DNA of 64,000 bases from an uncultured Eubacteriales bacterium (GCA_900545265.1 UQYI01000001.1:4145-68144), one strand, 5' to 3'. Shown: positions 6,001 to 37,569, numbered from the stretch's first letter. Numbers and translations are program-made. Notes: generated by a model not told the origin, from the sequence alone.

Positions 6001-6734
6001 ATGATCTCCAACTCAAGGGTTGGCTCCTCAGTGCCAGGAAGCTCCGAATCGACTGCCGGATCGGCCGGCTGCGCATCCGTTTCAGATTGTGCGTCAGACG
6101 GTTCGCTCGTTTCCGTATCCACCATCTGGTCATTTTCCGGAGTTACTGCGGTTTCCGTCTCCGGTTCGGACTCAATAGACTGATCCGCTTCCGGTGGCAG
6201 AATGATCGGCTCAGTCGTGATCATCGGCTCGGGCGTCGGTTCCGGCGTCGGCTCCGGCAACGAGTCCGTTTCTGCACCGACAAAACGCCACGAGAGCGAT
6301 TGCCCGCCCGTTTCCACCGTCACCAACCGGTTGCTGCTGAACAGCGGCGCAAACGATACAATAAAGTCGCTCGCGGTGTTTCGATAGACCTGAGTGCCAT
6401 CTTCCAGCGTGACCAGCGTCAACGTATTATCGATGGGTTGCCATGCACCATTCATCAGGTAGTTGACCGGCTCGGCATATACAACGGCCTCGCGTGCGCC
6501 ATCCTCCCTGAGAAAGACGCGGATGCTTTCCGCTCTTCCGGCCGCATCTTCGCCCACCAGAGGACTATATGGAAGCTCTTGTGACCCTGAAAAGCTATTT
6601 GTCTCCGCATATGCTTCGATTGCCCGCTGTTCTTCTATCTCATCTGCGAGCGTCTTGGCCGGCGAGGCGATATAGTACACAAACATCATGACAGCCACAA
6701 GGCTCAAACTCAGAATCCGTTTGAATGCTTTCAT
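1..6734 (-). CDS. RHS/YD-repeat polymorphic toxin precursor RHS-1 (WapA-like), 3' end beyond window
   Basis: Absent from the ORF track because its stop lies left of base 1. The reverse frame from ATG 6734-6732 (RBS GGGAGAGGAAAC) has no stop down to base 1; I confirmed frame continuity at 5381, 980 and 428. Signal peptide MKAFKRILSLSLVAVMMFVYYIASPAKTLA. Acidic/PEPTPEPTPEP linker (~5830-6260). YPLSIDPDVSINF...TVTWNTKPA DNRLRE-like module (~5045-5370). NHGFEESTWPSSW CBM-like jelly-roll modules (~2850-3800). Many YD repeats. Core end FRYHGYVYDEETGWYYLLSRYYNPTVGRYLSADT...YAYCLNNPTTNYDPSG (780-980). Confidence 0.85.
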   Translation of the reverse strand, partial: MKAFKRILSLSLVAVMMFVYYIASPAKTLADEIEEQRAIEAYAETNSFSGSQELPYSPLVGEDAAGRAESIRVFLREDGAREAVVYAEPVNYLMNGAWQPIDNTLTLVTLEDGTQVYRNTASDFIVSFAPLFSSNRLVTVETGGQSLSWRFVGAETDSLPEPTPEPTPEPMITTEPIILPPEADQSIESEPETETAVTPENDQMVDTETSEPSDAQSETDAQPADPAVDSELPGTEEPTLELEIIEPEAETAPTATPAPEAESNPTEPAASEEQLPAEDELTEAAFDLSAFDTLAITDAVAQIVTNTETFSAESAEAVAALTDEERDMQLRFPSSLQSEIAYVDPATGLNVRYVLSGKTLREYITLASAPERAVAYSVEIQAMGVSPVTDEAGATAFVNASGQPVFTLGQAIMYDAAGEQSSAIEAHLSEFNADTGTCTYTLIPDTEWLQSADRQYPLSIDPDVSINFSSAVQDTFVNSGSGNGNYSSYQYMRVSKSHEALIYIPNANLPTLSSGDVILKATLNLNRYNSNTNKENKEINLSAITGTWNHTTVTWNTKPAHNSAVDSFGVSTVPGQYTSFDITKIVKNWYETPSSNRGVALYNTGSYSDLSSSEYTANANRKPYYSVIYRNSTGLEDTWAYYSQSIGRAGTGSVNAFSGNLTMTHADASVSNGVLPISLSHVYNTNDRTANIGYGYGWRLNYAQSLKKVSVTNLSGTATYYQYIDGDGTRHYYKADGTSTTQYVNELDKDSVLTISGTTVTITDKGDNKLIFECDSSVANGRLTTIRDANGNETNIAYTTTTITNLRISSITEKLAGNDAGQALTLAYTNDLLSQVTAPNGLNVSYAYSDTNLTGITYADGETVSYTYNGNRCLTKATNIDAYSISYSYTAGAPYRVTRAAEAAGSTNGQYLTFTYGRNKTTVADAQGRRTVYHTDNIGQPVSVTDPEGRAVFATYNTASQTVTQLKAVSKMQMTVVNLLKNHGFEESTWPSSWTRSDSGNLTNDSSRRHTGAYSCKITAGSAARTLSQSVSVTSGQTYTLSAYFSGTLNTAYLKVTNGSSTIQSPAVTAGGTGWNRESLTFTAASSTITVAVIVPAGSGTVYVDSIQLEKGAAPNRYNMVMNSDFTSGTSNYTMNYANYCAIVDVADAKYAAARDTHPSFLDSKVYEMNGTSKAEKIKQTFLSGSTGDTYTFGAWIASNNIPQTKQQIYTSSGSTTTKDYGIKRLVLQFLNSSGTVVCSGYVNFAADTDEWQFASGTVTATSSYAQMQIVVEYTDSLNVLYVDGLQLHKEQFATGYSYDSNGNLSGTVSLIGQQNSFGYDSNDNLTSMTDARGNTTTYTYDSKHNLLTSTSPEGVVTSNTYNDFGLATETKVGTEADYIRTTTTYDSASGIAINETDASGNTVTYTLDPVSRTRTAITDARNNTTTYTYGSPANYGRLQTITTEGLNPITYSYTTNGEIQSISRGGTSYNYSYDVWGRSLGLAVGEFSLSTNVFNSAGLLSEVEYGNGFAVKYSYDNLDRLIAVQQKLPGSTSYATAYEYVYNGDGELYEERNYLNNRALFREYDHSGRCIASIEKTFTGSSNSLTYGTVVSTYLYHYDANNNISRIQQSVAGSSWSMVYTYDKDNHGLTTTLENGVVLTNSYDAIGRVQSKQIGLSTPYSINVSYKNGVNGSSSILLDTYRNGTDDAYSYTYDANNNILSVAQGSTASSYVYDAANQLVRANIYNSSTDSYTAIYAYDGNGNLTSKTLYPYTTDELGTATSTIQYGYATEGWSDQLTSYNGQSIVYDTSGNPTVYLGQSLSWNGLQLTGVGSNISYAYDKDGIRQTKTIDTATTQYYYNGNVLMGTYDGINKLLFSYDDQSNVVAVDYNGTYYYYLRDGQGSIVKLIDGNGSTVVSYSYDPWGVCTTTGSMASTLGALNPFRYHGYVYDEETGWYYLLSRYYNPTVGRYLSADTLSSTGQGVLGYNMYAYCLNNPTTNYDPSGSLSFSNIFSGASLLSIGLAAVAIGATILTCGAAAPIMVAVAAATTTTGIVTVANGIAEVQEGLTATNDTSNDGQNFMRDAFFRGDKAAYEKQRDVIATVAEVGTFLCTAYIGIKGGVCFVAGTAVLTAAGQVPIESISEGDLVYASDPETGESGYKRVVQTFVNETDELVHLQYGGTTVTTTPTHPFYQPQKGWIDAIDLRAGDILVKSNGEYVVVEAVEHELLEEPITVYNFEVEGFHTYYVGDTSVLVHNDCTKPRS
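24..428 (-). other. Hint (intein-like) pre-toxin domain within the RHS-1 C-terminus
   Basis: Translation CFVAGTAVLTAAGQVPIESISEGDLVYASDPETGESGYKRVV...THPFYQPQKGWIDAIDLRAGDILV...PITVYNFEVEGFHTYYVGDTSVLVHN. It has the N-terminal Cys block and the C-terminal HN typical of Hint/intein folds. After HN the sequence reads DCTKPRS and runs off the window. Confidence 0.7.
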
Positions 6735-6840
6735 GTTTCCTCTCCCATGTTCTGTTTTTGCTTCGGTCTCCAGTTTCGATCGTGCGTAGAAATGACTCTT
6801 GATGACTTGTGAATATGTTATATCATATCTATACAGTTTT

Positions 6841-6876
6841 CCATATTTTGTAAATCGTGTTTACAAAGAGTTCATA
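6841..6876 (-). promoter_or_regulatory. Conserved upstream box, copy 1 (upstream of RHS-1)
   Basis: CCATATTTTGTAAATCGTGTTTACAAAGAGTTCATA. The 17-nt core TGTTTACAAAGAGTTCA (6858-6874) is identical to 20701-20717 upstream of RHS-2. It lies between a minus-strand terminator (6932-6967) and the RHS-1 start. Confidence 0.5.
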
Positions 6877-6931
6877 AAGGAGAGAAAAGTGTCGTTGCGG
6901 TGATGTACACACACAGAAAACAATAATCATG

Positions 6932-6967
6932 AACAACGAAAACAGAGTGGCAACGATGGCCACTCTG
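6932..6967 (-). terminator. Rho-independent terminator separating the orphan-cassette operon from RHS-1
   Basis: Minus strand reads CAGAGTGGC-catcgtt-GCCACTCTG followed by TTTTCGTTGTT: a perfect 9-bp stem plus a U-run. Confidence 0.65.
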
Positions 6968-7095
6968 TTCAGAATTGTGGTGGTATTTGGGATGGTGCAA
7001 TTTGCCAACCAGAAAACATAATGCAAAGCTATTGCAAGTTCTTACACTATGTTCCCGCAAATCAAATACTGGCCATCTCGTTGAACTGGTCGCAA

Positions 7096-7175
7096 TTATA
7101 GCTCTTTGATCACTGCGCCGTTACCGTCAACAATCATCGTCACGCTGCCGCGGATATCGTACCGGTAGAAGGCAT
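7096..7175 (-). pseudogene. Vestigial RHS core fragment (scar)
   Basis: Reverse translation AFYRYDIRGSVTMIVDGNGAVIKEL-stop matches the YFFYRYDIRGSVTNIVDGEGSIVKSY segment of RHS-2 and the orphan at both DNA and protein level. Only ~25 codons remain and there is no start codon. Confidence 0.6.
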
Positions 7176-7230
7176 TTGTATTTGTATTGTTATTACTTTG
7201 TCCTTGCCGTCTACTCTTTCCGTCTCTCCG

Positions 7231-8682
7231 TTAAATAAAGTCGATGGTATAGTCCCCCTCATGCATACGCGGGGCGCACCGCTCATACCGCTCCTGCAGC
7301 ATCTGCTTGATGTCGTACGGGTGCCGGTAATCCCGGTCCCAGATCGTGTCGCTGCAATCCGGCGTCAGCTTCAGCCGCCGCTTGATCAGTTTCAGGTTTT
7401 CCTCATACGTCCGATGCAGCCGCTCCTCTATCGCCACCTCGTCCCGATTCTTCAGCAGCAGGTATTCCTCCCGTTTGTTCTCCTTCGCCTCGATCACGCG
7501 CTCCATCCCCTCGTAGTCGTCCCAGCCGCGCACGCCTGGCGTCGGACGGGAAACGGAATATCCGCTTGCATCTCGCAGCGTCTTATGCCACAGTTCCTCA
7601 TACATCCGGAAAAAGCAATACTGGTTGAATACGACATTTACCGGCTCTCTCAGCAGTTTATAGTTCTCTACCGTCGGCGGCCTCCATTCACGCTCCGATG
7701 CCTGTTTAGAACAATCGTACCGTCTGTAATAGACAAACGTCCACCATTGGATCTCCATCACCGCGTCCCGCACGTTGGTGATCCTGCGCAGCATCGGTTC
7801 CACCACCTGGCCGAATATCTCCTCCACCGTATACCTTGTCCATTTGGTTAGGTGGAGATCGTCGCAAGAAAAAATATAATGAACCGAACGCGAATCATGA
7901 CGCCAGTCCTGCATTTTATTGGGCGTATCTTGAACTCTCATGACATACGGCAAACTCTCCAATTTTTCGGTCATAAAAGAGTCCAAATATGGCATGAAGG
8001 TTGGCTGAATGCTAATCAACATGTTAAATAATCCGTTATATGGCACCAGTCCGAACGATAGCAGCACCTCGTCGCGGATCAGCTTATACCACCTGTGGTA
8101 CTGGAACGTCGTAAACCCCAGTGCCGCCATCCGTTCCCCAAAGGTTTCCTGCGCATATGCATCCAGTCGCTGCGAAGCGGTCGGCTGCTTTCGCTTGTGC
8201 TTCCGCTCGCGTTTGTCGGCCTCCATCTGCTCTGCCAGCTCCGCGTCCGGCAGCAGCGGCAGCTTGAGATACGCCGCCAGTTCCTCGATCTGCTGCATCG
8301 TGTCCAGCGGGACGTCCATCATCAGCCGCTCCAGTGTCGCGCCGCCCGCGTCTTCTACGCCAAATGCCGCTGTGATCTGCGCCATGTTCTGCGGCGTTTG
8401 AGAGAGTCCTTCATCCAGCGATGACACACCGCCAGCCACCGCGTTGCCGCCCCGATAGAGCGCCAGCGCCACCGCATCTTCATCGAAACAGTAAAAGGCC
8501 AGCACGTCTATGCCGGTCTCGCGCGAAAGCGTCTCTGCATCCGCATACAAGATAAGCGGATTGTCCCAGTCGGGGTCATACACGCTGACCCGCCCATCCT
8601 GTTCCCTGCGGTGTGGGTTTGCAGCCTGCTGCTCCTTCGTCAACGTCCCCATCAAGTGCAGACTCCCGATCGTCAGTCCCAT
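7231..8682 (-). CDS. Hypothetical 483-aa cytoplasmic protein, candidate immunity partner of the orphan toxin
   Basis: Track ORF 7231..8853 trimmed to MGLTIGSLHL, which is preceded by AGAAAGGAGCGGAGAAAC (RBS). This start removes the overlap with the upstream gene. No signal peptide or TM segment and no motif I recognise. It sits directly 3' of a toxin cassette. Confidence 0.7.
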   Translation of the reverse strand: MGLTIGSLHLMGTLTKEQQAANPHRREQDGRVSVYDPDWDNPLILYADAETLSRETGIDVLAFYCFDEDAVALALYRGGNAVAGGVSSLDEGLSQTPQNMAQITAAFGVEDAGGATLERLMMDVPLDTMQQIEELAAYLKLPLLPDAELAEQMEADKRERKHKRKQPTASQRLDAYAQETFGERMAALGFTTFQYHRWYKLIRDEVLLSFGLVPYNGLFNMLISIQPTFMPYLDSFMTEKLESLPYVMRVQDTPNKMQDWRHDSRSVHYIFSCDDLHLTKWTRYTVEEIFGQVVEPMLRRITNVRDAVMEIQWWTFVYYRRYDCSKQASEREWRPPTVENYKLLREPVNVVFNQYCFFRMYEELWHKTLRDASGYSVSRPTPGVRGWDDYEGMERVIEAKENKREEYLLLKNRDEVAIEERLHRTYEENLKLIKRRLKLTPDCSDTIWDRDYRHPYDIKQMLQERYERCAPRMHEGDYTIDFI

Positions 8683-23593: not shown

Positions 23594-25219
23594 TTACTTT
23601 TCCTCTTTCTTGCTGTTCCTGTCAAAAAGATAATTGCCGTTTTCATCGATCTTCTTATCCAGGAAATGGCAGGCTACAAAGTGGCCGGGGCTGACCTCCA
23701 CATAGGGAGGGGGCACTCGCTTGCACTTATCGCAGGCCATATAGCAGCGGGTATGGAACTTGCAGCCTTCCGGAGGCCGGATGGGGCTGGGAATGTTGCC
23801 CTCCAGAATGATCCGATCCTTGCTGGCGGAATCGGGATCCGTGGTAGGAATGGAGGAAAGCAGCGCCACCGTGTAGGGATGCCGGGGATCCCGGAACACT
23901 TCTTCTGCCGTGCCCAGCTCCACCAGGTTGCCCAGGTACATAACACCGATACGGTCGGAAATGTAGCGGACAACGGACAGGTCGTGGGAGATGAACAGGT
24001 AGGTCAGTTTCTCGTTCTCCTTCAGTTCCTCCAGCAGATTGATGATCTGGGACTGGATGGACACGTCCAGAGCGGATACACACTCATCGCAGACGATGAA
24101 CTTGGGCTTTACGGCCAAAGCACGGGCAATGCAGATACGCTGCCGCTGGCCGCCGGAGAACTGGTGGGGATAGCGATGCAGCATATATCCCTGCAAGCCA
24201 CATTCTTCCATGATCTGAAGGATGTATTCCTTCATCTTGGGATCCCGGGGCTTGAAGAACTTATGGGTGATAAGGCCTTCGCCAATGATCTGACCCACGG
24301 TCATACGGGGGTTCAGAGAGGAATAGGGATCCTGGAAGATGATCTGGATATCCTTGCGCAGCACGCGCATTTCAGAATACTTCAGGCGGCTCAGGTCAAT
24401 GCCGTTGTCCAGCATGGCTTCGTACTCCTGGAACTTGGCATTATCCTTATACTTTGCTTTGAGGGCAGCCACGCTGGCTTCCTCGTCCCGCAGGATGGCG
24501 TTCAGCTTATCAAGCTTTTCCTGCAGACCCTTTTTCTTTTCCCGGTAGATCTCTGCCTTGCGCAGTGCCTGGCGGATCTTGGGCTGAGGATTCTTAAAGT
24601 TCTTGTCCGCCTCGATCTCCTTGGCAATAGCTTCGTTCAAAGAGATCTCGCCGTCCCAATCCCGCATCTGCTCCTTGATCTTGGAGATCTGGATGTTGGT
24701 GCGGTACTTCTTCAGCAGGGCCTCTGCTCCTTCCCGGGGATCATCCAGCGCCGCAAAGCCGCCCAGGATCTTGACCACGTTCTGGAAAGCCGTCTGAGCC
24801 TCCGCAGCCAGCAGATTCTTGGTCTGATGCTGATAGAAGGTTGCCTTCTCCCCCGCCTTTTCCACTTCCGCAGCGGCAGCAGCGGCCTTGGCCTGCTCCT
24901 TCTTATACTTTTCGATCATTTTAGGGGCCTGCGCCAAAGTCTTTGCCACATATTCGGGGGCAAAGTCTTCCAGCGTGCGGCCGTAATACAGGGTGCTGCC
25001 GGCAGTCTGATCGTACAGCTGAAGGATGGTTCTGCCCAGGGTGGACTTGCCGCAGCCGGATTCGCCTACCAGACCGAAAGTCTCGCCGCTGAAAATATCG
25101 ATGGTGATATCCTCATTGGCCCGTACATACAGCTGCTCTTTCTGGAACCATTTGGTTTTGGCTACAGGAAAGTACTTTTTAAGATTCGTGATTGACAACA
25201 GCTTTTCCGTGTTCTTCAC
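23594..25219 (-). CDS. Opp/Dpp-family ABC ATPase (OppF-like) with a ~190-aa helical insertion
   Basis: Walker A GESGCGKST, FQDPYSSLNP, signature FSGGQRQR, Walker B FIVCDECVSALD, and the oligopeptide C-terminal domain (HPYT...C.F..RC). About 235 aa separate Walker A from FQDP, whereas I expect roughly 45-50. Confidence 0.9.
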   Translation of the reverse strand: MKNTEKLLSITNLKKYFPVAKTKWFQKEQLYVRANEDITIDIFSGETFGLVGESGCGKSTLGRTILQLYDQTAGSTLYYGRTLEDFAPEYVAKTLAQAPKMIEKYKKEQAKAAAAAAEVEKAGEKATFYQHQTKNLLAAEAQTAFQNVVKILGGFAALDDPREGAEALLKKYRTNIQISKIKEQMRDWDGEISLNEAIAKEIEADKNFKNPQPKIRQALRKAEIYREKKKGLQEKLDKLNAILRDEEASVAALKAKYKDNAKFQEYEAMLDNGIDLSRLKYSEMRVLRKDIQIIFQDPYSSLNPRMTVGQIIGEGLITHKFFKPRDPKMKEYILQIMEECGLQGYMLHRYPHQFSGGQRQRICIARALAVKPKFIVCDECVSALDVSIQSQIINLLEELKENEKLTYLFISHDLSVVRYISDRIGVMYLGNLVELGTAEEVFRDPRHPYTVALLSSIPTTDPDSASKDRIILEGNIPSPIRPPEGCKFHTRCYMACDKCKRVPPPYVEVSPGHFVACHFLDKKIDENGNYLFDRNSKKEEK

Positions 25220-26201
25220 TGCAGCGCACCTCCTTCATGGGATAGAAACAACGAATTTTCTGGCCGGGGAGAACCTCACTGAGCGCAGGTTCTTCCTCCA
25301 GACAACGCTGGGTGGCGTACTTGCACCGGGGTGCAAACTTGCAGCCCTTGGGCAGTGCCAACGGATGGGGCACTACGCCGGGAATAGGCTTGAGCTTGGT
25401 GCCCACGCTGTCCATACGGGGGATGGAATGCATCAGACCCTCCGTATAGGGGTGGCTGGCCGGGCAATCATGGCTGAAGATCGTCCGTGCAGCCGCCTGC
25501 TCCACCACCTGGCCGCAGTACATGACCACCACGTCATCGGCCATCTCATTGATAACGCCCAGGTCATGGGTGATGAAGATGATGGCGGTGCCGTTTTCCC
25601 GCTGAAGGTCGTTCATCAGGTGCAGGATCTGTGCCTGAATGGTCACATCCAGAGCGGTGGTGGGTTCGTCGGCAATGAGGATCTTGGGCTTGCAGGCCAG
25701 GGCCATGGCGATCATGACACGCTGGCGCATACCACCGGAAAGCTGGTGAGGATACTGGAGCAGAACCGTCTCGGGATTGGGGATCTGCACGGCGTAGAGC
25801 ATCTCCAGCGCCTTCTTCTCCGCTTCCTTCTTATTCAGCTTCTGGTGAATAATGAAGGGCTCGCTGAGCTGCCGCTTGACGGTAAACACCGGGTTCAAGC
25901 TGGTCATGGGCTCCTGGAAGATAACGGAGATCTTGTTGCCGCGGATGGAGTACATTTCCTGCTGGGAAAGCTTGGTCAGATCCTTGCCTTCGAAGAGAAC
26001 CTCCCCCTCGGCGATATAGCCATTGCCATCCAACAGCTGGAGGATGCTCATGGCAGATACGGATTTACCGGAACCGGACTCGCCTACAATGCCGATGGTC
26101 CTGCCGGATTCCAGGGAATAAGATACGTCGTTGACAGCCTTAACAATACCTTTTCTGGTCTTAAAGTAGGTATGAAGGTTTTTTACTTCTAATAAAGCCA
26201 T
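25179..26201 (-). CDS. Opp/Dpp-family ABC ATPase (OppD-like)
   Basis: [43 protein letters not shown]. Confidence 0.9.
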
Positions 26202-26218: not shown

Positions 26219-28171
26219 TTATTTCTCCTGGGAGCTCTTGGGGTCAAGAACATCCCGCAGGGTGTCGCCGATGATGTTGATGCTGATGGTCGCCACAGAC
26301 AGCGCAATGGCGGGGAACAGCCACTGCCACCAGTAGTTCTGGATGACGATGGAGTTGTTGGCGCCGTTGAGCATGTTGCCCCAGGTAGGCTGCGGCTGCT
26401 GCACGCCGAAGCCCAGGTAGGAAAGGCTGGACTCGGTAAGCATGCATCCTGCAAAGTCCAGGGTGATGTTCACCAGAATGATGGAAATAACGTTGGGAAG
26501 GATGTGCTTGAAAGCGATCCGGTTCTCCTTGACGCCCATGGATTTGGCGGCAATGACAAACTCCTTCTCACGCTCGGCCAACACCTGTGCGCGGATCATA
26601 CGGGCAAGACCGGTCCAGCTGAGCAGGCCCAGAATGATCATGATGATGAAGATTCTGGTATTCTCGTCTATGGGCATGGTCCGTATGACGTAGGACAGCA
26701 TCATGGCAAATGGCAGGAAGGGCAAGGCAGAGAATATCTCTGTCACACGCATAAGCAGCATATCCACCCAGCCGCCGAAGTAGCCGGAGAGACAGCCCAC
26801 GATAACGGCGATGATGGTGGAAACCACTACGGCCACCGCGCCGATGGTCATGGTCATTTTGCCGCCGTGGATAATACGGGTGAGGATATCACGGCCGCGG
26901 CTGTCGGTGCCCAGGGGGTACCCCTTGAAGCCCACGCTCTCTACCAGCTTATCCTCACTGTCGACCATGTAGGTCTGCTTGGAGCCGGTGTAGATCAGGC
27001 TGCACTTGTCGCCGTCCACGTTGCACTGGCCGCCGTCGTTATGGCCCCAGGCATATACGTTGCCGCTTTCGCCCACGGCTACAAAGTGCCGGGTGCCAGC
27101 CTTGATCTCTACCATCTTCTCATTGGCAGTGATGGCGGGAATATCCTTCTCGCCGTATTCAGCGGCACCGAAGACCACCAGGCTGCCATCGTCCATGACG
27201 AAGCAGTAGCAGTTGTTGGTAGCGGCAATATCCAAGACGGTGCGGTCCTTCATGTAGGAGCGCAGGTTCTTGATCTGACCGTCCTTATTGGAATAAGCGG
27301 TCTGCTTATTGAAGGTCAGGGTCTGGCCGCCGGTAACGGTGCCGTCTTCCTTCAGCAGGATGGCATAGTAGTTGGAGAAGGCCACCTTTTGCACGCCGGT
27401 GTTGTATTTCTCCTTGTTGGCGAACTCAGCAAGGCTCAGCATGCTGTTGTTGTTGCCCCACATATACATCCGTCCGTCATCCATGACCAGAGCAGTGACC
27501 TGATAGCCGCAGATCAGCTGCCGGATATGGCTGGGATCGATGGCGCCGTTGATCAGCTCTTCGGGCTCCTGGGTGTAGGGCTCGTTCTCGCTCTTGAGGT
27601 AGCCGTACTGGCCGTTGCCGTTAGTGCCCCAGCCCACCACCTTACCATCGGTAGTGACGGCGATGATATGGTCGGAACCGGCAGCGGCAGCCACCACCTT
27701 GCCGGGCTGGATCTCTTCGGGATACTTGGAGTAATCCACGCCGGTCAGGTTGTTCTTTACGTTGCCCCAGAGATAGAATGTGTTATCTTTGCTTACGCCG
27801 ACGGTGAAGTCGGAAAAGCCGTTGATATCCTTGATCTGATCCTTCAGGCCATCGGGCACCGTCTTCATATTATTGAGAGGAGGCATGTTGGCCTGGAGAG
27901 GATCGGTATAGTTCAGATCCATGGGCATGAAGTAAGGCCCAATGAACACAAACAGGAACATACCGATCAGCACGATCAGAGCGGCTACGGCCAGCTTCCG
28001 GCGGAAGAAGGCCTTGGTAGCCATAACGGAGGGGCTTTCGATCTTTTCGATGGCGAACTTCTCGTCATCGGTCAGCTCTTTGCTGGCGCCCCAGAAGGCG
28101 CGCTTGAGCCAGCGGCCCAGGGTGCTGAACACGCCGTTCTTTTTGGCAGCACTGCTGTTTTTCTTTTCCAT
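26219..28171 (-). CDS. OppC/DppC-like ABC permease with an RCC1-like repeat domain in the first extracytoplasmic loop
   Basis: TM1 LAVAALIVLIGMFLFVFIGPYF, then a ~315-aa insert (26927-27874) with repeats GWGTNGNGQYGY, MWGNNNSM, VFGAAEYGEKD and AWGHNDGGQCNV. The canonical PLGTDSRGRDILTRI follows, then the permease core with the EAA-like region AAKSMGVKENRIAFKHILPN. Confidence 0.85.
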   Translation of the reverse strand: MEKKNSSAAKKNGVFSTLGRWLKRAFWGASKELTDDEKFAIEKIESPSVMATKAFFRRKLAVAALIVLIGMFLFVFIGPYFMPMDLNYTDPLQANMPPLNNMKTVPDGLKDQIKDINGFSDFTVGVSKDNTFYLWGNVKNNLTGVDYSKYPEEIQPGKVVAAAAGSDHIIAVTTDGKVVGWGTNGNGQYGYLKSENEPYTQEPEELINGAIDPSHIRQLICGYQVTALVMDDGRMYMWGNNNSMLSLAEFANKEKYNTGVQKVAFSNYYAILLKEDGTVTGGQTLTFNKQTAYSNKDGQIKNLRSYMKDRTVLDIAATNNCYCFVMDDGSLVVFGAAEYGEKDIPAITANEKMVEIKAGTRHFVAVGESGNVYAWGHNDGGQCNVDGDKCSLIYTGSKQTYMVDSEDKLVESVGFKGYPLGTDSRGRDILTRIIHGGKMTMTIGAVAVVVSTIIAVIVGCLSGYFGGWVDMLLMRVTEIFSALPFLPFAMMLSYVIRTMPIDENTRIFIIMIILGLLSWTGLARMIRAQVLAEREKEFVIAAKSMGVKENRIAFKHILPNVISIILVNITLDFAGCMLTESSLSYLGFGVQQPQPTWGNMLNGANNSIVIQNYWWQWLFPAIALSVATISINIIGDTLRDVLDPKSSQEK

Positions 28172-28183
28172 AGACTGCCTCCT

Positions 28184-29209
28184 TTACTTGTTGACGCGCA
28201 CGCGCGGGTCGACCAGACCGTATACCAGGTCGATAAGCAGATTGCCGAAAAGGGAAATGGACACATAGAACATCTGCAAAGCCAGAATGACCTCGTTGTC
28301 ATTGCCGTTCAGGGCATCAAAATATGTTTTACCGATACCGTTAAGGCCGAAGATATTTTCAATCATTACGGATCCGCCGAATATACCGAGGAACCAGCCG
28401 ATAATCAGCGTAACGACAGGCAGCAACGCATTGCGCCAGGCATGGGAATAGATAACTACCTTTTCCCGGACGCCCTTGGCGCGGGCAGTACGAATGCAGT
28501 CCATGGACAGGGCCTCGATCATGGATGCGCGGACATAACGGGTCATGCCGCCCAGGGAGCAGAAGGTCATTACGATCAGGGGCAGGGCCAGATGATACAT
28601 CTTATCCCAGAATTTATCCCACTTGGACCAGTTAAGACTGCCTGCTGTCTGCATGCCGGAGACCGGGAACCAGCCCAGCACAACGGCAAATAACCAAATG
28701 AATACAATTGCAATGATAAAGGTAGGTAAGCTGTAGCCAATGATCGTGCCCACCTGCACGGCTACATCCCTGCGGCTCCCCCGCTTTACGGCACAGAATA
28801 TGCCAAGGGGAATGGTTATGCCCAGGGCCAGAATGGTGGCGAAGACATTAAGGAAAATAGTGTTTTTCATGGGTTCGCCCAGCACTTCGATCACGGGTTT
28901 GCCGTATTTGATGGACTGGCCGAGATTCCCCTGAAGCAGGCCGTTGTAGCTCCCGTCATAGAAGGGATACACACCCAGCCAGCGTAAATAGCGTTCGATT
29001 TTTGTACCGTCTGTACCGTATCGTCTTTGCCAATATTCAAGACGTTCGTCGTAGTTGAGCTTGCGGTTGGCCTGGATCTCCAGCTTGGCCGCTTCTGCCG
29101 CCTTATCGATGGGCAGCATGTTGTAGACCATGTAAATCAGAAATGAGAGAATAAAGAATACGAGAACAATGTATAATATTCTCTTGACTATGTATTTCCC
29201 CATAGGCAC
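28184..29209 (-). CDS. OppB/DppB-like ABC permease
   Basis: MGKYIVKRILYIVLVFF..., six TM segments, and EAA motif TARAKGVREKVVIYSHAWRNALLP. Confidence 0.9.
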   Translation of the reverse strand: MPMGKYIVKRILYIVLVFFILSFLIYMVYNMLPIDKAAEAAKLEIQANRKLNYDERLEYWQRRYGTDGTKIERYLRWLGVYPFYDGSYNGLLQGNLGQSIKYGKPVIEVLGEPMKNTIFLNVFATILALGITIPLGIFCAVKRGSRRDVAVQVGTIIGYSLPTFIIAIVFIWLFAVVLGWFPVSGMQTAGSLNWSKWDKFWDKMYHLALPLIVMTFCSLGGMTRYVRASMIEALSMDCIRTARAKGVREKVVIYSHAWRNALLPVVTLIIGWFLGIFGGSVMIENIFGLNGIGKTYFDALNGNDNEVILALQMFYVSISLFGNLLIDLVYGLVDPRVRVNK

Positions 29210-29434: not shown

Positions 29435-31720
29435 TTAATAGTTCTCGTAGAAGTCGGCCTCGTCCATGATGTAGTAGCTGGAGTAGTTGCTGTACATCTC
29501 AGGATCGATGGTCCAGTTCCAGGAGAAGTCATATACGGCGCTGTTGAAGCCGGTAGCAAAGTTGATAGCGTTCAGCTTGGCTACGCCGTTCCAGCCGTAG
29601 GATTCCATTTGGGAGAGCTCGCCATATACACCAGTCTGGAAGTCGCAGGAGGTGTAGGTGATGTAAGCGCCGATCTCGGTGGTGGCGTTGGGGTTGGTCT
29701 GCCATGCGGTGATCAGCTGGTCGGTAACGTTGTTGGGCTGAGTGCCGTACCAGTTGATGGCCAGGGGCATGTAGTACTCACCGTTGATCTTGAGGGTCTT
29801 GTAAGCGCCGTCAACAGATTCAAAGGTGATGTTCTGGGGGGAGAGCTCATAGCCTTCCAGCTTCTTGTAACGAACGGCATCGGTGCCGGCCACATAAGCC
29901 TGACCCTTGTCGTTGTAGATCCAGCCGCCCTCGTCGAGCACTGCGTTGGCAGAGTCGGCGCTGTAAGCATACTGGTTCAGGATGATCTCGTCTTCAACGG
30001 CCTTGTAGGCGGAGAAGCCGGTGTAGTAAGGACCATGCACAACGGAGCCGTAGCCGCCGGTGAAGGTCTGAGCGAATTCAGGACGGTTGATGGTGTAGAT
30101 GATAGCCTGACGGACGGAAGTGAAGCTGGTGGGACCCAGGTCGCCGCGGAAGCCGAGCTTGCCGTAACCGGCGCGGTCATAGTGGGTCTCGGCGAACTTG
30201 CCGGGGTTTTCTTCCACGATCTTCAGAGCGGCCTTGGTGTCGTCACCACCGGTAACACCGGCAATGATGTCGATCTCGCCCTTGAGGAGCTGGTCGTTCT
30301 GGGTCTCGCTGATGATCTTGACGTAGGTGATGGTCTCGATGGAGGCCTTGCCGCGGGCATCGTCACCAGGATAGTTGGGGTTCAGAGTCAGGGTAGCGGT
30401 CAGGGAAGAAGCGTCGTAGTTGGACACTACATAGGGGCCGCTGTAGGGGATAGCAGAATCCCACTTGAGGTTCTCGTTAATGACGTCGGCCATGACATAA
30501 GCGTCAACGCCGTTCTTGTTCTCCTTCTTGTAGAAGTCATCGGAGAGGCCGCACTCGTTGTTCTCGTTGACAACGATGTCGTTCTCGCCCAGGTACAGAG
30601 CCATGGGAGTGGGATCGAAAGCGGCATAGGTGATTACATAGTAGTAATCGGCATAGTCTGCCAGGTAGGTGATGGCGAAGGTGTAGTCATCGATGAGCTG
30701 TACGCCCTTGAAGTAAACCTTGTCGCCCTCGCCTTCGTAGGCCTTGAATGCATCGTAGCCCACAACGGTCTGGCCCGCATTACCATTGCCGCCGGCGGCC
30801 ATAGCCACTTTGGTGGAGTTGACCAGCAGGTAAGCCAGGTAGTTCTTGGCGGTGATGGGGGTGCCATCGGAGAACTTCAGGTCGTTACGGATCTTGATGG
30901 TGTAGGTCAGGGTGCCGTCGTCATTCTTGACGTGCACGGGCTCTTCGGCCAGAGCCTGCATGTTCCAGGCATAGGCACCGTCCATGCCGGCCTGAGCGGT
31001 AGCATAACCGGTGGTCAGGTTCTGGACATCCAGATCGGAGCTGGCGGGAGAGGACTTGCCCCAGGCGGAGTTACGGAAGTTGCCGGACAGATCGGTGGTG
31101 CTGCCGAGAATGAAGGAGCTGGTTTCGCCTTCCTTAACGGTTGCGGCCACGATGGCATCTGCGGGACCCCAGTAGGGAGAGGTCACGAAGTTTTCGATCT
31201 TGGCGTTGTATACATCGAAGTACTGGTTGGAGTAAAGGGGCACTTCACATACCATGTAGTTCCAGCGCTGGATGTACAGCTTCCACCACTCGGCGTACAC
31301 GTCGTCAGCAGTCTTATACTTCTCGCTATTTTCGGGTACGGAGCAATTGTAGACCATAGCCATGGAGAGGAAGTCCTCGCCCAGCTCATAGGTCTTGCCA
31401 TCAACTTCAACGGTGGCAATACCGTCTTCGTCCTCTTTCACCATGTCGATGGTGACTTTGGAACCGATCTTGGAGTAGACGGAAGAATAATCCTTATGGA
31501 CGATAGCATCGTTCACATCTACTTCTTCGTACTTAACTTCAGCTGCCGGAGCGGGTTCCTCGGTCTTGGTGTCGGTATCCGCAGGAGCTTCGGTCTTGGT
31601 CTCAGCTTCGGGCTGCTTCTGATCTTCGGCGGGTTTCTGCTGCTGGCAACCAGCGAGCACACCAAAGACCATCACAACGGCCAGCATGAGTGCAAAGAGC
31701 TTTGCAAATTTGGATTGCAT
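29435..31720 (-). CDS. Family-5 (peptide/nickel) ABC substrate-binding lipoprotein, unusually long (761 aa)
   Basis: Lipoprotein signal MQSKFAKLFALMLAVVMVFGVLAGC, a Gln/Glu/Pro/Thr-rich linker, a ~150-aa extra N-terminal region, then an SBP_bac_5-like body. Confidence 0.85.
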   Translation of the reverse strand: MQSKFAKLFALMLAVVMVFGVLAGCQQQKPAEDQKQPEAETKTEAPADTDTKTEEPAPAAEVKYEEVDVNDAIVHKDYSSVYSKIGSKVTIDMVKEDEDGIATVEVDGKTYELGEDFLSMAMVYNCSVPENSEKYKTADDVYAEWWKLYIQRWNYMVCEVPLYSNQYFDVYNAKIENFVTSPYWGPADAIVAATVKEGETSSFILGSTTDLSGNFRNSAWGKSSPASSDLDVQNLTTGYATAQAGMDGAYAWNMQALAEEPVHVKNDDGTLTYTIKIRNDLKFSDGTPITAKNYLAYLLVNSTKVAMAAGGNGNAGQTVVGYDAFKAYEGEGDKVYFKGVQLIDDYTFAITYLADYADYYYVITYAAFDPTPMALYLGENDIVVNENNECGLSDDFYKKENKNGVDAYVMADVINENLKWDSAIPYSGPYVVSNYDASSLTATLTLNPNYPGDDARGKASIETITYVKIISETQNDQLLKGEIDIIAGVTGGDDTKAALKIVEENPGKFAETHYDRAGYGKLGFRGDLGPTSFTSVRQAIIYTINRPEFAQTFTGGYGSVVHGPYYTGFSAYKAVEDEIILNQYAYSADSANAVLDEGGWIYNDKGQAYVAGTDAVRYKKLEGYELSPQNITFESVDGAYKTLKINGEYYMPLAINWYGTQPNNVTDQLITAWQTNPNATTEIGAYITYTSCDFQTGVYGELSQMESYGWNGVAKLNAINFATGFNSAVYDFSWNWTIDPEMYSNYSSYYIMDEADFYENY

Positions 31721-33380: not shown

Positions 33381-34106
33381 TTACACTTTGGCGATGTATT
33401 CGTAAGGAAGTGGCACGATGGTACCGGGGGTCTGGATGGCAACGAGCTGCTCCAGCGCCGCCCTGACGATATCCGTCTGCATCTGCACGTTATGGGGTTC
33501 CCCCGCATTGGCGCCCATAGGCACCAGAGGGGCTACCGCCCGGGGTGCGCCCGTCTGCCGCACAACGGGAGGCAGGGCTGCGATGATAATGGTGGGAATG
33601 CCAACGGCTTCGATTGCTCTCTGCACCAGAACTGCAGAGCGGTGGCAGGTCCCTCACCCGGCGGTGAGGATGACGGCGTCTACATCCTCGCTTTTGAACA
33701 TTTCGGCAATCTGGGGGCCGGTGATGTGCCGGAACTTCTCCTGATTGCCGCCGCCGCCCATGAACCCTGCGTGAACCGGAGCGCAGGCCCGGATAAACCC
33801 GGCCCGGGCCAGTTCATGAATGCGATCCAGCGGAAACATACAGTTGATGTCTTTATTTACATCGGAGTTGTCATAGCCCCCGTGGGAGACCATGAGTTCG
33901 CTGGTGGGAACGGTATTTTCTATCTTGCGCCAGGTGAAATCCCCCGCCAGATTGAACCGCTCCTGATCCTTTCTGTGTATACCGGCCGCCGAAGCGATGG
34001 CAATGGACATATCCTTGAGAGCTTTAGTCACCGGGGCCCACACGGGGGGCGGGGTCACGGGCACGTAGATCTCAGACTGCAATCCTTTGACTATGGTCAG
34101 GCCCAT
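33381..34106 (-). CDS. prdB: D-proline reductase subunit PrdB, selenoprotein (UGA-Sec at 33654-33656)
   Basis: Track ORFs 33654..34106 and 33381..33626 are in the same frame, separated only by TGA. The joined reading is ...DVDAVILTAG-U-GTCHRSAVLVQRAIEAVGIPTIII...; SG/AG-U-GTC is the PrdB/GrdB-type Sec context. Joined length is 241 aa. Confidence 0.85.
33619..33656 (-). promoter_or_regulatory. UGA plus candidate SECIS hairpin
   Basis: mRNA reads UGA GGGACCUGCCACCG CUCUGCA-GUUCUGG-UGCAGAG: a perfect 7-bp stem that begins 15 nt after the UGA. Confidence 0.6.
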
Positions 34107-34405
34107 CAGAGTTCCTCCTTCATATTTTCGTTCTTTTGGCGCATCCGCTCCTTACGGAGCGCATATTCGCCTTGATTTTGTAGGTAACGCCGGTTGACTT
34201 CGGGGCCCAGCTGCTCTATGAAGCTCATGTTCCAGGCCACTTCCTGCCCCACCCGGATCTCATACTCGCTGATAAACATCCGCAGGGGGATCCGCAAAGA
34301 GCCAAGACGCCCCTTCAGGTCAATGGCTACGGCGCCGTCATGGACCTCGGTGATCACACCCTCCATGCGGATGATCTTATCGCCATACGCAAGAGGCTTT
34401 TCCAT
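34106..34405 (-). CDS. Small conserved-looking ORF between prdA and prdB (99 aa)
   Basis: Translationally coupled at both ends (TGATG overlaps with the prdA stop and the prdB start). MEKPLAYGDKIIRMEGVITEVHDGAVAIDLKGRLGSLRIPL... Confidence 0.65.
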   Translation of the reverse strand: MEKPLAYGDKIIRMEGVITEVHDGAVAIDLKGRLGSLRIPLRMFISEYEIRVGQEVAWNMSFIEQLGPEVNRRYLQNQGEYALRKERMRQKNENMKEEL

Positions 34406-36207
34406 CAGTCATATTTCTCCCGGCGCTTTTGGCTCATGGGCAGGGACTGCTCGTTGAGCTCGGTTTCTATCCGCTTTCCGGTGGCAGCCTCCATGGCCTG
34501 CAGGTTGGCGGCCTTTACTTCCGGATTCCATTTCTTTTCAGCGGCCTTTACCGGCTCCCCGGCCATGGCGTTCTTGAGCATCTGAATGGCACGCAGTGCA
34601 TCTTCGGGGCAGAGCGTGTTGCAGGCCAGCACCTCGTTTTCTATACCGGAGGCGGATTTGTTCATATCCACCATGTGGGTCATGTACTTGTTGCCCACCA
34701 CCAGAGCCCCCTGCACGGCGCAGAAGCTGAGCCCCACCACAGGGATGCCCCGCATGCCGATCTGTTCATGATGGCTGGCAAAATCGATATGGTTGTTGCC
34801 GAAGCCTTCGGTAGTTACAAAGGCGCCGTCTACATCCAGCATCTCGCACCACTGGCCTACCCGCCTGGACACATAGAACTTTTCCGCATTGATCTGGGGA
34901 GACCCTACAAAGATCACCCCGCACAGATCCAGCTCCTCGTCCTGCAGGGCCGCCAGCACCAGTGGCTCCCGCCAGTAGTGACGGCTCATCTCCTTGGAAG
35001 CGGGGCCAATGCAGGTAAGGGCGTGGATGCACCCATCCAGCACCTCCAGCGGGGATACGGCCACGGGCACGTTGCCCAGATCCACATTGGGTTTGGCCCC
35101 CAGCACGCCTACCGGCTCCACGGGAAGGATCAGATTGTCATGCATGGCCCCCTGCCCCATGATCTCCTTGACGATGACCACTTTCTTTTTGCCGGGGCGG
35201 CGGTACTGCTCAAAGGTTTCTTCGGAAACGACCAGTTCATCGCCGGCCTTTTTCAGGGCTTCCCGGATCTCCTGGGTGATCACGTCCGTAGCGGCATGAG
35301 CGGCCATGGGACCGGGACGCTCCATGTTGGTGTGCTCCTTGACGGTGACCTGGGTCTTGATAAAGATCTCTCCCTTATCCGGTGCGCCGGGGCGGCCCCA
35401 GACGATATTCTCATCCAGATAGCCTTCACTGGAACCGAACTCGCCGATCTGCACGCCGTTGGCATCGGTACCTGTGACCATCATGATCACCCCGTCCAGC
35501 ACCCGGGTGACGCCGGAACCCAGCTCGTTCTCCCCTTCTTTGGCGGCGATGGGCTGCACGTCCATAATGGTTTCGGAGTAGGTATGATAGGCATCTGGCG
35601 TGATGATATCGATCTTCAGATCGTACACCAGCGCCTGAGAAGCCACGCAGTCCTTCTCTATCCCCTCCCGGATATACAGTACGGTACCTTCCAGCCGGGT
35701 CTCCGGGCCCCGCCGGACTTCCGTGACCTTAAAATGCTTCCGTTTCAGGCTGCGCACCAGCCGGGGAGGCTGTTCCGGTGCAGCGGGTACGGCGGCAGCG
35801 GTGTTGGAAACGGCGGCGGAAACACCGCTCAGCGGGATCTCGATGTGGATATCCTTTCCCTCCGCAATATCGATGCGCAGCACGCCGCCTGCAGCGGGGA
35901 GCGCCGCCGGAGTCTTTTCTTCCTCTGCGGCAGGAGCAGGCTCTGCTTCCGGCAGCTCCTGAACGCCCTCCAGCACCTGCCGGGTCAAAGCAGTGAGGGA
36001 ATCGCAGGTCTTGGTAAGTCTGGCCCCCAGCACCTGCCGGATGGACAGGCATCCCGTCAGATCCAGCAGATTGGAATCCACCAGATCGTCAAAAATGGCG
36101 GGATCCTCCAGGTTGTGGGCCTCGATAACGGTGCCCGCTTCCGTACGGCAGCAAAGCACCGCAGGCTCCTGCTGATGCTCCCGGGCATATTCGGCTGAAA
36201 TGGACAT
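34405..36207 (-). CDS. prdA: D-proline reductase proprotein PrdA
   Basis: 600 aa. The N-terminus MSISAEYAREHQQEPAVLCCRTEAGTVIEAHNLEDPAIFDDL resembles PrdA as I remember it. Its position between prdC and prdB fits. It includes the region HALTCIGPASKE expected around the processing Cys. Confidence 0.8.
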   Translation of the reverse strand: MSISAEYAREHQQEPAVLCCRTEAGTVIEAHNLEDPAIFDDLVDSNLLDLTGCLSIRQVLGARLTKTCDSLTALTRQVLEGVQELPEAEPAPAAEEEKTPAALPAAGGVLRIDIAEGKDIHIEIPLSGVSAAVSNTAAAVPAAPEQPPRLVRSLKRKHFKVTEVRRGPETRLEGTVLYIREGIEKDCVASQALVYDLKIDIITPDAYHTYSETIMDVQPIAAKEGENELGSGVTRVLDGVIMMVTGTDANGVQIGEFGSSEGYLDENIVWGRPGAPDKGEIFIKTQVTVKEHTNMERPGPMAAHAATDVITQEIREALKKAGDELVVSEETFEQYRRPGKKKVVIVKEIMGQGAMHDNLILPVEPVGVLGAKPNVDLGNVPVAVSPLEVLDGCIHALTCIGPASKEMSRHYWREPLVLAALQDEELDLCGVIFVGSPQINAEKFYVSRRVGQWCEMLDVDGAFVTTEGFGNNHIDFASHHEQIGMRGIPVVGLSFCAVQGALVVGNKYMTHMVDMNKSASGIENEVLACNTLCPEDALRAIQMLKNAMAGEPVKAAEKKWNPEVKAANLQAMEAATGKRIETELNEQSLPMSQKRREKYD

Positions 36208-36225
36208 ATCCTGTTCCCTCCTTGG

Positions 36226-37569
36226 TTAAAAATCTATCTCCTGGCTCACCTGCTTGGAGGTTTTGAGCCGTCTGTACAGGGGATGGCCTATGGCCCGCAT
36301 GACATGATCCGTCATATGCAGCACCTTCAGCCCCATTTTAGGCCCGGAGGCCATGACCGTATTGGAGCAGTCCGAGCAGTTGCCGATAAGGATATACCGG
36401 CAGCCGTCCTTTTTGAACTGCAGGTTATTCTGCACCTGCCCGGGGCAGTTGCCGGGCCGCTCGCACTTTAAGGGCGCACCGGGTTTATTCTCTATGGCCT
36501 GTTTGCACCGGCAGACGGAGGCCACCCGGCCGTGCATCTTTTCGGCCAGCTCCCGCATCCGGGCTTCGCTGCCCCCGCAGGCGCATACCAGCAGCCCAAC
36601 GGGCGCCCCGTGAAGATCCGGAAAGTCTGCCGAAACCAGAATGGCTCCGGTGGTTTTGGCAACGGGTTCCTCCCGGGAAACGGAACGGCCCGTGAAGGCT
36701 CCCCCCATCAGGATCTCGCCATAGGGGCATACATCCGTATCGATTCCCCCGGCACGTTCCAGCAGAGCGCCCACCGACACGCCTACAGGCACATCCATAA
36801 ACACATGCGCGCCGCTGCCTCCGTGCAACTGGCCCCGCACGGTAAGGTTCTTGCTGAAACAGGGCCGCCGGTCCTCAACGGCTTCGGCCACCCGCAGCAC
36901 GGTTTCCGCATTGAGCACCACAGCGTTGGCAGCGGTGGGCAGCTGGGTGGTGGAAAGCTCTATGCCCAGGCACTCCCGCACCACGGCCCGTTCCTCCCCC
37001 ATGGGATAGATATCCGGGAGCAGATGCAGGGAAATATTTTTATACTCCTTCAGCAGACCATGCAGCAGACGGATCGCCCGCTCATGCTTGCGTTTAACGG
37101 CAATAATAGCCTGGCCGGCCCCGGTGATCTCCATGCAGATGGCTATGCCCCGAAGGGTCTTTTCCCCCTGTTCCTCCAGCTGGCGGATATTATGCTCCAG
37201 CCCGGGTTCGCACTCTGCGGCGTTTACCAGCACATAGCCCCCGTGAAGATCGGTATCCAGCTTTACCCCCGTGGGAAACCCTGCGCCCCCCATGCCCACG
37301 ATGCCTGCATAGCGGATAAGCTCCAGTTTGGTGACCGCTTCCGGCAGGGGAATAGGTGCAAAGGCTTCCGGCTGGATCTCATCGGGGCGGATGCAGATGC
37401 GGTCCGGCTCCAACGCCTCTACCGTGCCGTATACGCTTGAAAAGATGTTGGCCCCCAATCCCTGCGGGGCTGCCACCAGAGTCCCCTTTTCTACCCGGTC
37501 TCCCGGCTGCACGCAGGGGACGCAGGGAGCACCTACATGCTGTTTGAGCAATAGCTGTATAAGTTCCAT
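36226..37569 (-). CDS. prdC: RnfC-like electron-transfer protein PrdC
   Basis: 447 aa. MELIQLLLKQHVGAPCVPCVQPGDRVEKGTLVA, GIVGMGGAGFPTGVKL (RnfC/NuoF-like nucleotide-binding motif), and C-terminal Cys clusters. Confidence 0.8.
   Translation of the reverse strand: MELIQLLLKQHVGAPCVPCVQPGDRVEKGTLVAAPQGLGANIFSSVYGTVEALEPDRICIRPDEIQPEAFAPIPLPEAVTKLELIRYAGIVGMGGAGFPTGVKLDTDLHGGYVLVNAAECEPGLEHNIRQLEEQGEKTLRGIAICMEITGAGQAIIAVKRKHERAIRLLHGLLKEYKNISLHLLPDIYPMGEERAVVRECLGIELSTTQLPTAANAVVLNAETVLRVAEAVEDRRPCFSKNLTVRGQLHGGSGAHVFMDVPVGVSVGALLERAGGIDTDVCPYGEILMGGAFTGRSVSREEPVAKTTGAILVSADFPDLHGAPVGLLVCACGGSEARMRELAEKMHGRVASVCRCKQAIENKPGAPLKCERPGNCPGQVQNNLQFKKDGCRYILIGNCSDCSNTVMASGPKMGLKVLHMTDHVMRAIGHPLYRRLKTSKQVSQEIDF

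Follow-up and report, generated by a model that had tools for sequence, protein, structure and literature searches.

An RCC1-like beta-propeller predicted in the first loop of an OppC-type ABC permease from an uncultured gut bacterium

The window analyzed here, a stretch of 64,000 nucleotides from an uncultured Eubacteriales bacterium (GCA_900545265.1 UQYI01000001.1:4145-68144), carries on its minus strand a gene for an OppC-type permease of an ATP-binding cassette (ABC) importer in which a domain of about 300 residues, predicted to be an RCC1-like beta-propeller, stands between the first transmembrane (TM) helix and the canonical core. The gene is part of a five-gene minus-strand operon, and together the five genes encode an ABC importer of type I, of the Opp/Dpp kind (PepT family). 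Type I importers are textbook machines; the propeller-bearing OppC is an uncharacterized variant of this known transporter kind. The features at the locus are as follows, the permease and its parts first and the other operon genes after them (aa, amino acids; ORF, open reading frame; dN/dS, ratio of nonsynonymous to synonymous substitution rates).

26219..28171, minus strand: OppC-type ABC permease gene with the propeller insert, 650 aa (P0001); from the ORF list, translation, Pfam, and NCBIfam
27926..27997, minus strand: TM1, residues 59-82; from the model helix at 59-81, Lys/Arg counts, and OppC_N coverage of residues 46-98
26927..27838, minus strand: predicted seven-bladed RCC1/BLIP-II-like beta-propeller, residues 112-415, in what should be extracytoplasmic loop 1; from the model, Foldseek, PDB sequence search, and dN/dS
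26219..26926, minus strand: canonical OppC core, residues 416-650, with the GTD-x-x-GRD motif at its start and the five remaining TM helices; from alignment to 8z21_B
29435..31720, minus strand: family-5 lipoprotein substrate-binding protein, 761 aa; from Pfam SBP_bac_5, the model, and Foldseek
28184..29209, minus strand: OppB-type permease partner, 341 aa; from Pfam BPD_transp_1 (131 bits)
25179..26201, minus strand: OppD-type ATPase, 340 aa; from Pfam ABC_tran and oligo_HPY
23594..25219, minus strand: OppF-type ATPase, 541 aa, with a helical insert of about 195 aa; from Pfam ABC_tran in two stretches
24350-24934, minus strand: the OppF insert, Lys/Glu/Ala-rich and helical, about 195 aa (residues ~96-290), between the Walker A motif and the FQDP region

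The inserted domain and its fold

An earlier reading made from the DNA alone (here, the sequence-only reading) had proposed that RCC1-type repeats are inserted into the first outside loop of an OppC permease, and the parts of that proposal hold up well. Residues 100-415 of the 650-aa protein are encoded by window positions 26927-27874 on the minus strand, and the translation contains GWGTNGNGQYGY, AWGHNDGGQCNV, and PLGTDSRGRDILTRI together with every other motif that had been quoted. With regard to placement, Pfam identifies the N-terminal TM segment as OppC_N at residues 46-98 (42 bits; cut-off, 23.9) and BPD_transp_1 at residues 455-645 (115.7 bits; cut-off, 26.4), and a PDB sequence search matches residues 416-646 to residues 80-301 of E. 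coli OppC (8z21_B; E value, 9e-50). The same genome encodes two OppC paralogs of the ordinary kind, 306 and 308 aa long, and alignment with them maps the whole insert precisely between TM1 and the GTD-x-x-GRD motif, the distance from TM1 to GTD being about 335 residues in the propeller OppC versus about 25 in the paralogs. That is, the insert occupies the loop that directly follows TM1 in an OppC core, as had been proposed. Among the NCBIfam equivalog models (Opp4C, OppC, DppC, NikC, GsiD, and others), none has its cut-off reached by this protein; the best is Opp4C, at 308.1 bits against 350, and all of the others fall still further under their own cut-offs.

Which side of the membrane would such a loop occupy? 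OppC permeases have their N terminus on the inside. In the window protein, residues 1-58 hold 13 Lys/Arg residues, versus 2 in the 29 residues that follow TM1 (residues 83-111), and because this Lys/Arg-rich N terminus agrees with the N-in topology of OppC, the propeller loop should face outward. Alignment of the core to solved OppC chains, in which loop 1 is periplasmic, supports the same outside location.

The RCC1-type character of the insert is borne out by profiles, by a structural model, and by comparison of that model with solved structures. Pfam places RCC1_2 in three stretches (95 bits; cut-off, 22) and RCC1 once more above its gathering score (41.3 bits; cut-off, 21.7). WD40_RLD (PF25390) stays under its gathering score (126.2 bits against 150), though with an E value of 2.4e-36 over residues 112-386; the fit of short blades to this whole-domain model is incomplete. 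In an AlphaFold2 model of OppC built from 44 family sequences, residues ~105-420 form seven strand groups at a predicted local distance difference test (pLDDT) score of 85-94, and the membrane core scores 50-70, as expected for a subunit modeled without its partners. When this model is used as the query, Foldseek returns UVR8, BLIP-II, and RCC1 at a probability of 1.0, as well as HERC2 and RPGR, and the best target-normalized fit is to BLIP-II (template modeling score [TM-score], 0.66-0.76); separate matches go to the OppC/DppC chains 8j5t_C, 8z1y_B, and 8z21_B, to which the core is 36-38% identical. A PDB sequence search likewise lists UVR8, HERC2, RPGR, RCC1, and BLIP-II (E value for BLIP-II, 2e-6). 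Based on the model, the insert is predicted to be a compact, complete, and closed seven-bladed RCC1/BLIP-II-like propeller whose ends lie near each other; because the ends are close together, insertion of such a unit into a loop would be simple.

These likenesses need to be read with some care. The eukaryotic proteins (RCC1, UVR8, the HERC2 RLD, and RPGR) share the repeat family and the seven-bladed fold with the OppC propeller, but they are cytoplasmic or nuclear and serve in Ran exchange, UV-B sensing, and ubiquitin ligase scaffolding, and at 15-20% identity no functional transfer is justified. BLIP-II (1jtd_B, 3qi0) is, like the predicted domain, a compact bacterial extracytoplasmic seven-bladed RCC1-like propeller with short blades, and it binds another protein tightly. 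It differs in being a free secreted protein rather than a loop insert, the identity is 21-23%, and nothing suggests that the OppC propeller binds a beta-lactamase.

In pairwise comparisons, dN/dS lies at 0.04-0.17 in the propeller and at 0.015-0.06 in the OppC core, values that are qualitative given that synonymous distances are near saturation. Across 44 family members, mean identity to the window OppC is 84% in the core and 52% in the propeller; the propeller evolves about 3-fold faster than the core, and the fold motifs (WG pairs, G-x-x-H, and GQ) are invariant in all 44 sequences. The propeller is under purifying selection. The strongest conservation falls on fold-determining residues (Gly, Trp, and the G-x-x-H turns) and not on clearly surface-specific ones, which is what one might see if the propeller were purely structural, i.e., a rigid cap or buttress without a specific ligand, there to stabilize TM1 and TM2 or, in a monoderm envelope, to shield the translocation path. 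A 300-residue domain held at a dN/dS of ~0.05-0.15 across at least two classes would, however, be costly for a passive spacer, and the ordinary OppC paralogs of the same cell manage without a propeller; on balance, a purely structural role seems quite improbable.

Spread and inheritance of the fusion

In the window, the operon partners of OppC are all adjacent to it: OppB, two ATPases with an oligo_HPY tail, and the family-5 binding protein (Pfam). A scan of one genome per species yielded 258 stretches that encode a relative of this OppC, and our locus comparisons use the best 80, all of which cover the full 650 residues at 53-92% identity to the window OppC. Wherever the contig allows, the genes for the binding protein, OppB, propeller OppC, OppD, and OppF are syntenic in these loci; OppB adjoins the OppC gene in 80 of 80, and OppD is conserved in 79 of 80. 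The record titles all describe metagenome-assembled genomes or uncultured isolates from gut, rumen, or feces, and the carriers are labeled Christensenellaceae, Acetatifactor, Lachnospiraceae, Oscillospiraceae, Faecousia, Candidatus Scatosoma, and others.

The fusion is also found well beyond these loci. In a protein collection, 440 clusters match the insert, and the top 120 nearly all share the same domain list, the sole name among them being "ABC transporter permease subunit"; BPD_transp_1 and RCC1 repeats are thus present in one protein not just here but in hundreds of database proteins. We also surveyed the class and the phylum with a query that covers the final five blades and runs into the beginning of the core. 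Of 398 other genomes sampled evenly across the class, 18 have the fusion (in open frames of 609-684 aa), as do 10 of the 400 genomes in the phylum sample (412-642 aa), which puts the propeller OppC at about 3-5% of the genomes sampled from a major gut phylum. A distant set of 23 loci was drawn from these samples (20 loci) and from divergent members of the window's own order (three loci). The gene order binding protein-OppB-OppC-OppD-OppF and an orthologous binding protein recur in 22 of the 23; the contig of the remaining locus, L114, ends before the binding-protein gene. Relative to the window OppC, the distant proteins are 22-49% identical in the propeller and 50-88% identical in the core, with both identities falling together; for the insert-less paralogs, core identity is no more than 34-39%. 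Such a pattern is in keeping with a single ancient insertion, after which propeller and core diverged together, and the fusion appears to be old and inherited together with one particular binding-protein subfamily. In total, the propeller OppC is real, conserved, and widespread, not rare.

Could the fusion nonetheless be an artifact or a decaying gene, that is, an assembly chimera or a recent accidental insertion without function? Chimeras do seem to occur around the OppC gene. A core-only search for insert-less close relatives returned mostly fragments of fused proteins, and two candidates for insert-less variants, P0299 and P0305, were rejected: they are near-identical to P0001 from residue ~467, their N-terminal halves are unrelated to it, and they are probably metagenome assembly chimeras. 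Against an artifact stand the intact frame, the same architecture in 80 independent species genomes and in 28 more from the class and phylum samples, the purifying selection on the propeller, and a confidently predicted fold. We consider an artifact excluded for practical purposes.

The database proteins P0299, P0305, and P0364 are 317-360 aa long and have an ordinary OppC N-terminal half, the switch lying at a conserved GGWVD motif; the loop of P0364 is about 60 residues long. In a genome of the same genus (G005, locus L090:7566-10446), the OppC and OppD frames each consist of two overlapping ORFs, which could reflect a frameshift, decay, or an assembly error. As for where the insert came from, a search of a representative library with the insert gave 72,514 RCC1-type matches at E values of ≤1e-3, dominated by giant multirepeat RCC1 proteins (many of 2,000-7,000 aa with dozens of repeats), and these say little about its origin. 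The only other RCC1_2-repeat protein in the genome lies outside the window (G000:C17:~36329-36523) in a 508-aa open frame.

The binding protein and the OppF insert

Canonical OppC and DppC proteins (E. coli 8z21_B and 8z1v_B; M. tuberculosis OppC 8j5q_C and DppC 8wd9_C) have the same OppC_N TM1, GTD-x-x-GRD motif, and BPD_transp_1 core as the window protein, and canonical PepT-family operons have the same make-up as the operon described here, with OppB, two oligo_HPY-tailed ATPases, and a family-5 binding protein. The window's system differs from them in the insert region of about 335 residues in OppC, in the OppF insert of about 195 aa, and in a binding protein that is circularly permuted.

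The sequence-only reading had pointed to a 761-aa binding protein in this operon, and translation and Pfam confirm it as a family-5 member. It has a lipobox cysteine (Cys25) and a low-complexity tether of about 35 aa. The SBP_bac_5 match covers residues 256-609 and ends at profile position 287 of 368, the AlphaFold2 model has high confidence over its whole length (pLDDT, 87; predicted template modeling score, 0.82), and Foldseek matches the model to the OppA and NikA folds. Where, then, is the remainder of the family profile? In canonical-order relatives, an IPLYSN-type helix-strand segment forms the C terminus (in L100, positions 5876-7762, it is residues 580-628 of 628). The homologous segment in the 761-aa protein is at residues 149-197, directly before the strand that is the mature N terminus elsewhere, and overall the permuted segment spans residues ~107-197, ahead of the canonical first strand. 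Comparison of a window-clade profile with PDB entry 9p48_A, the closest solved binding protein and one named as a peptide-binding OppA, gives the same order: profile positions 107-164 match residues 502-559, and positions 195-264 and 372-537 match residues 22-86 and 157-306. (No paper was found for PDB entry 9p48.) These alignments show the 761-aa protein to have a circularly permuted family-5 fold with no new N-terminal domain, and the point at which the SBP_bac_5 match stops fits circular permutation. The earlier argument from an "unusually long" binding protein, which might call for a docking partner, loses force accordingly, in that the extra N-terminal part corresponds to the permuted canonical C-terminal segment. 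The permutation and the tether of about 35 residues together move the lipid anchor point, and the protein is in this sense a natural experiment in shifting the place at which a binding protein is tethered. A second copy of the 761-aa protein is absent from the genome. One distant propeller operon (L119:11919-16434) has two tandem binding-protein genes, for proteins of 672 and 661 aa; from such a tandem arrangement, fusion and trimming could produce a circular permutant.

Of the 74 related loci with a measurable OppF, 60 have the OppF insert, 7 have a shorter one, and 7 lack it; most of the distant family members, deep lineages included, have it as well. In L109, L112, and the Scatosoma-labeled clade, the OppF insert has been lost or shortened and the propeller kept. 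A second Opp-like system of the genome, outside the window (G000:C5:50440-54697), has an OppD-like ATPase with a gap of about 237 aa at the same position, as judged from the tblastn pieces (residues 3-78 and 82-310), and an ordinary OppC without a propeller in a 331-aa open frame. Since the OppF insert can be lost with the propeller kept, and an ATPase insert can occur without a propeller, the two additions are separable.

This separability bears on the idea that the propeller is a sensory or regulatory module that gates transport or signals inward, possibly via the OppF insert, such that the importer would also be a receptor. In favor of this idea, both additions, the propeller on the outside and the OppF insert on the inside, date back to the ancestor of most of the family, and the P2 loop of MalFGK2 takes up conformations that follow the state of the ATPase dimer (PMC6906923). 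Opposing it are the lineages just mentioned that have the propeller but have lost the OppF insert, the other Opp-like system with an ATPase insert and no propeller, and the lack of any conserved regulator gene beside the operon in the 80 loci. We also compared branch rates on a fixed tree of 58 operons, with branch lengths fitted separately for nine segments; by this measure, which is confounded, the rates of the propeller and the OppF insert are negatively correlated (rho, -0.35). Taken together, these points leave a sensory role distinctly unlikely.

Possible roles of the propeller

What might a propeller do at this position? A domain in OppC loop 1 would stand on the outer face of the membrane, beside the place at which the lipoprotein binding protein docks, and from there it could serve as a stationary platform for protein binding, able to capture, orient, or retain its cognate binding protein, much as MalF P2 does with MalE. 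MalF P2 (residues 91-276), an extended domain in the periplasm that has been called unique, projects outward by ~3 nm and remains bound to MalE throughout the transport cycle, and the isolated domain binds MalE with a dissociation constant of 7-22 uM (PMC6906923). The likeness between MalF P2 of E. coli MalFGK2-E and the OppC propeller is that both are folded extracytoplasmic domains in a loop of a type I importer permease. They differ in that P2 is Ig-like, comprises ~185 residues, and sits between TM3 and TM4 of MalF in the CUT1 family, whereas the propeller comprises ~300 residues and sits between TM1 and TM2 of OppC; the two are unrelated in both sequence and fold, and contact with the binding protein is known for P2 and inferred for the propeller. 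By analogy with P2, we tentatively favor a role for the propeller as a docking or retention platform for the cognate binding protein, a possibility that we hold with something short of even confidence. The substrate of the importer is most likely peptides, the grounds for this being family membership and the name given to the closest solved binding protein, 9p48_A.

Several observations are in line with docking. Based on PDB entry titles, the solved RCC1-like matches bind proteins (BLIP-II with beta-lactamase, UVR8 with COP1 and RUP2, and RPGR with PDE6D). Furthermore, the propeller OppC is coinherited with the binding protein in the best 80 loci while the flanks differ, which we count in its favor. 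Other observations weigh against docking. Many Gram-positive Opp systems run on tethered binding proteins without any such platform. Across propeller systems, the binding proteins range from 598 to 780 aa and have either canonical or permuted order (those of distant systems are canonical, at 598-660 aa and ranging up to 714 aa), and since size and order vary in this way, the propeller is not tied to an oversized partner. Finally, the branch rates of the propeller relate to those of the binding-protein core at a rho of 0.27, to those of OppB at 0.30, and to those of the permuted N-terminal segment at 0.11; that is, rate covariation separates the outside and membrane parts from the cytoplasmic parts and gives no signal specific to the propeller and the binding protein.

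Does the propeller instead bind some other surface partner? One can picture a protein or polymeric substrate, cell wall material, or a secreted hydrolase or peptidase being held there, with the effect of concentrating substrate or positioning the importer. The library search described above shows RCC1-type repeats to be very common in large surface and secreted bacterial proteins, the genome itself has the second RCC1_2 protein in its 508-aa open frame, the target of BLIP-II, the nearest compact match by structure, is a secreted enzyme of foreign origin, and the roughly 3-fold-faster evolution of the propeller relative to the core is what surface recognition domains often display. However, when the ORFs flanking the 80 loci were clustered, nothing was common to more than 12 loci, and no hydrolase, peptidase, other partner, or regulator gene was conserved beside the operon. 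Likewise, a ligand-type signature was not found in the propeller, and the steady codivergence of propeller and core is not the patchy diversification usual in host or polymer recognition modules. We regard another surface partner as the chief rival to docking, though a somewhat unlikely one.

A combination of ideas can also be entertained, in which the importer would be a two-sided "trigger transporter." Here, the propeller would capture a surface macromolecule or signal (a protein, a secreted enzyme, or a cell wall element), not merely the binding protein, and its occupancy would be coupled to the ATPase or to a cytoplasmic partner via the OppF insert. We offer this as speculation and think it unlikely; if it were true, such a receptor-like transporter would be of a kind not described for Opp systems.

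Returning to docking, a propeller that recruits the binding protein would provide an independent system in which to study both binding-protein recruitment and signaling to the ATPases; a propeller that binds something else would change the understanding of how gut Clostridia capture nutrients. In either case, the predicted domain would be a second permease-loop domain, unrelated to MalF P2, which suggests that a permease can bring along a recognition module of its own on the outside. Those carriers that are named are almost all uncultured gut or rumen bacteria, and the family thereby marks an unstudied part of their nutrition. The sequence-only reading was aware of no characterized example, and in agreement with this, a full-text literature search, with most subscription journals outside it, found no paper on an RCC1 domain or propeller within OppC, an ABC permease, or an importer.

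With respect to regulation, Rfam gave no match at gathering scores anywhere in the window and only a chance-level match in the 5' leader, and promoter and terminator scans did no better than on shuffled sequence. The likely substrate is not narrowed beyond peptides by any riboswitch, regulator, or neighboring enzyme gene. The D-proline reductase genes, RHS genes, and WYL regulator that adjoin the operon in the window were considered as functional companions and set aside, as they are not linked to it across related loci. The D-proline reductase cluster lies upstream on the minus strand (window positions 33381-37569) and comprises an RnfC-like PrdC, PrdA, a 99-aa ORF, and PrdB, the last of which is interrupted by an in-frame TGA at ~33654 that is probably read as selenocysteine.

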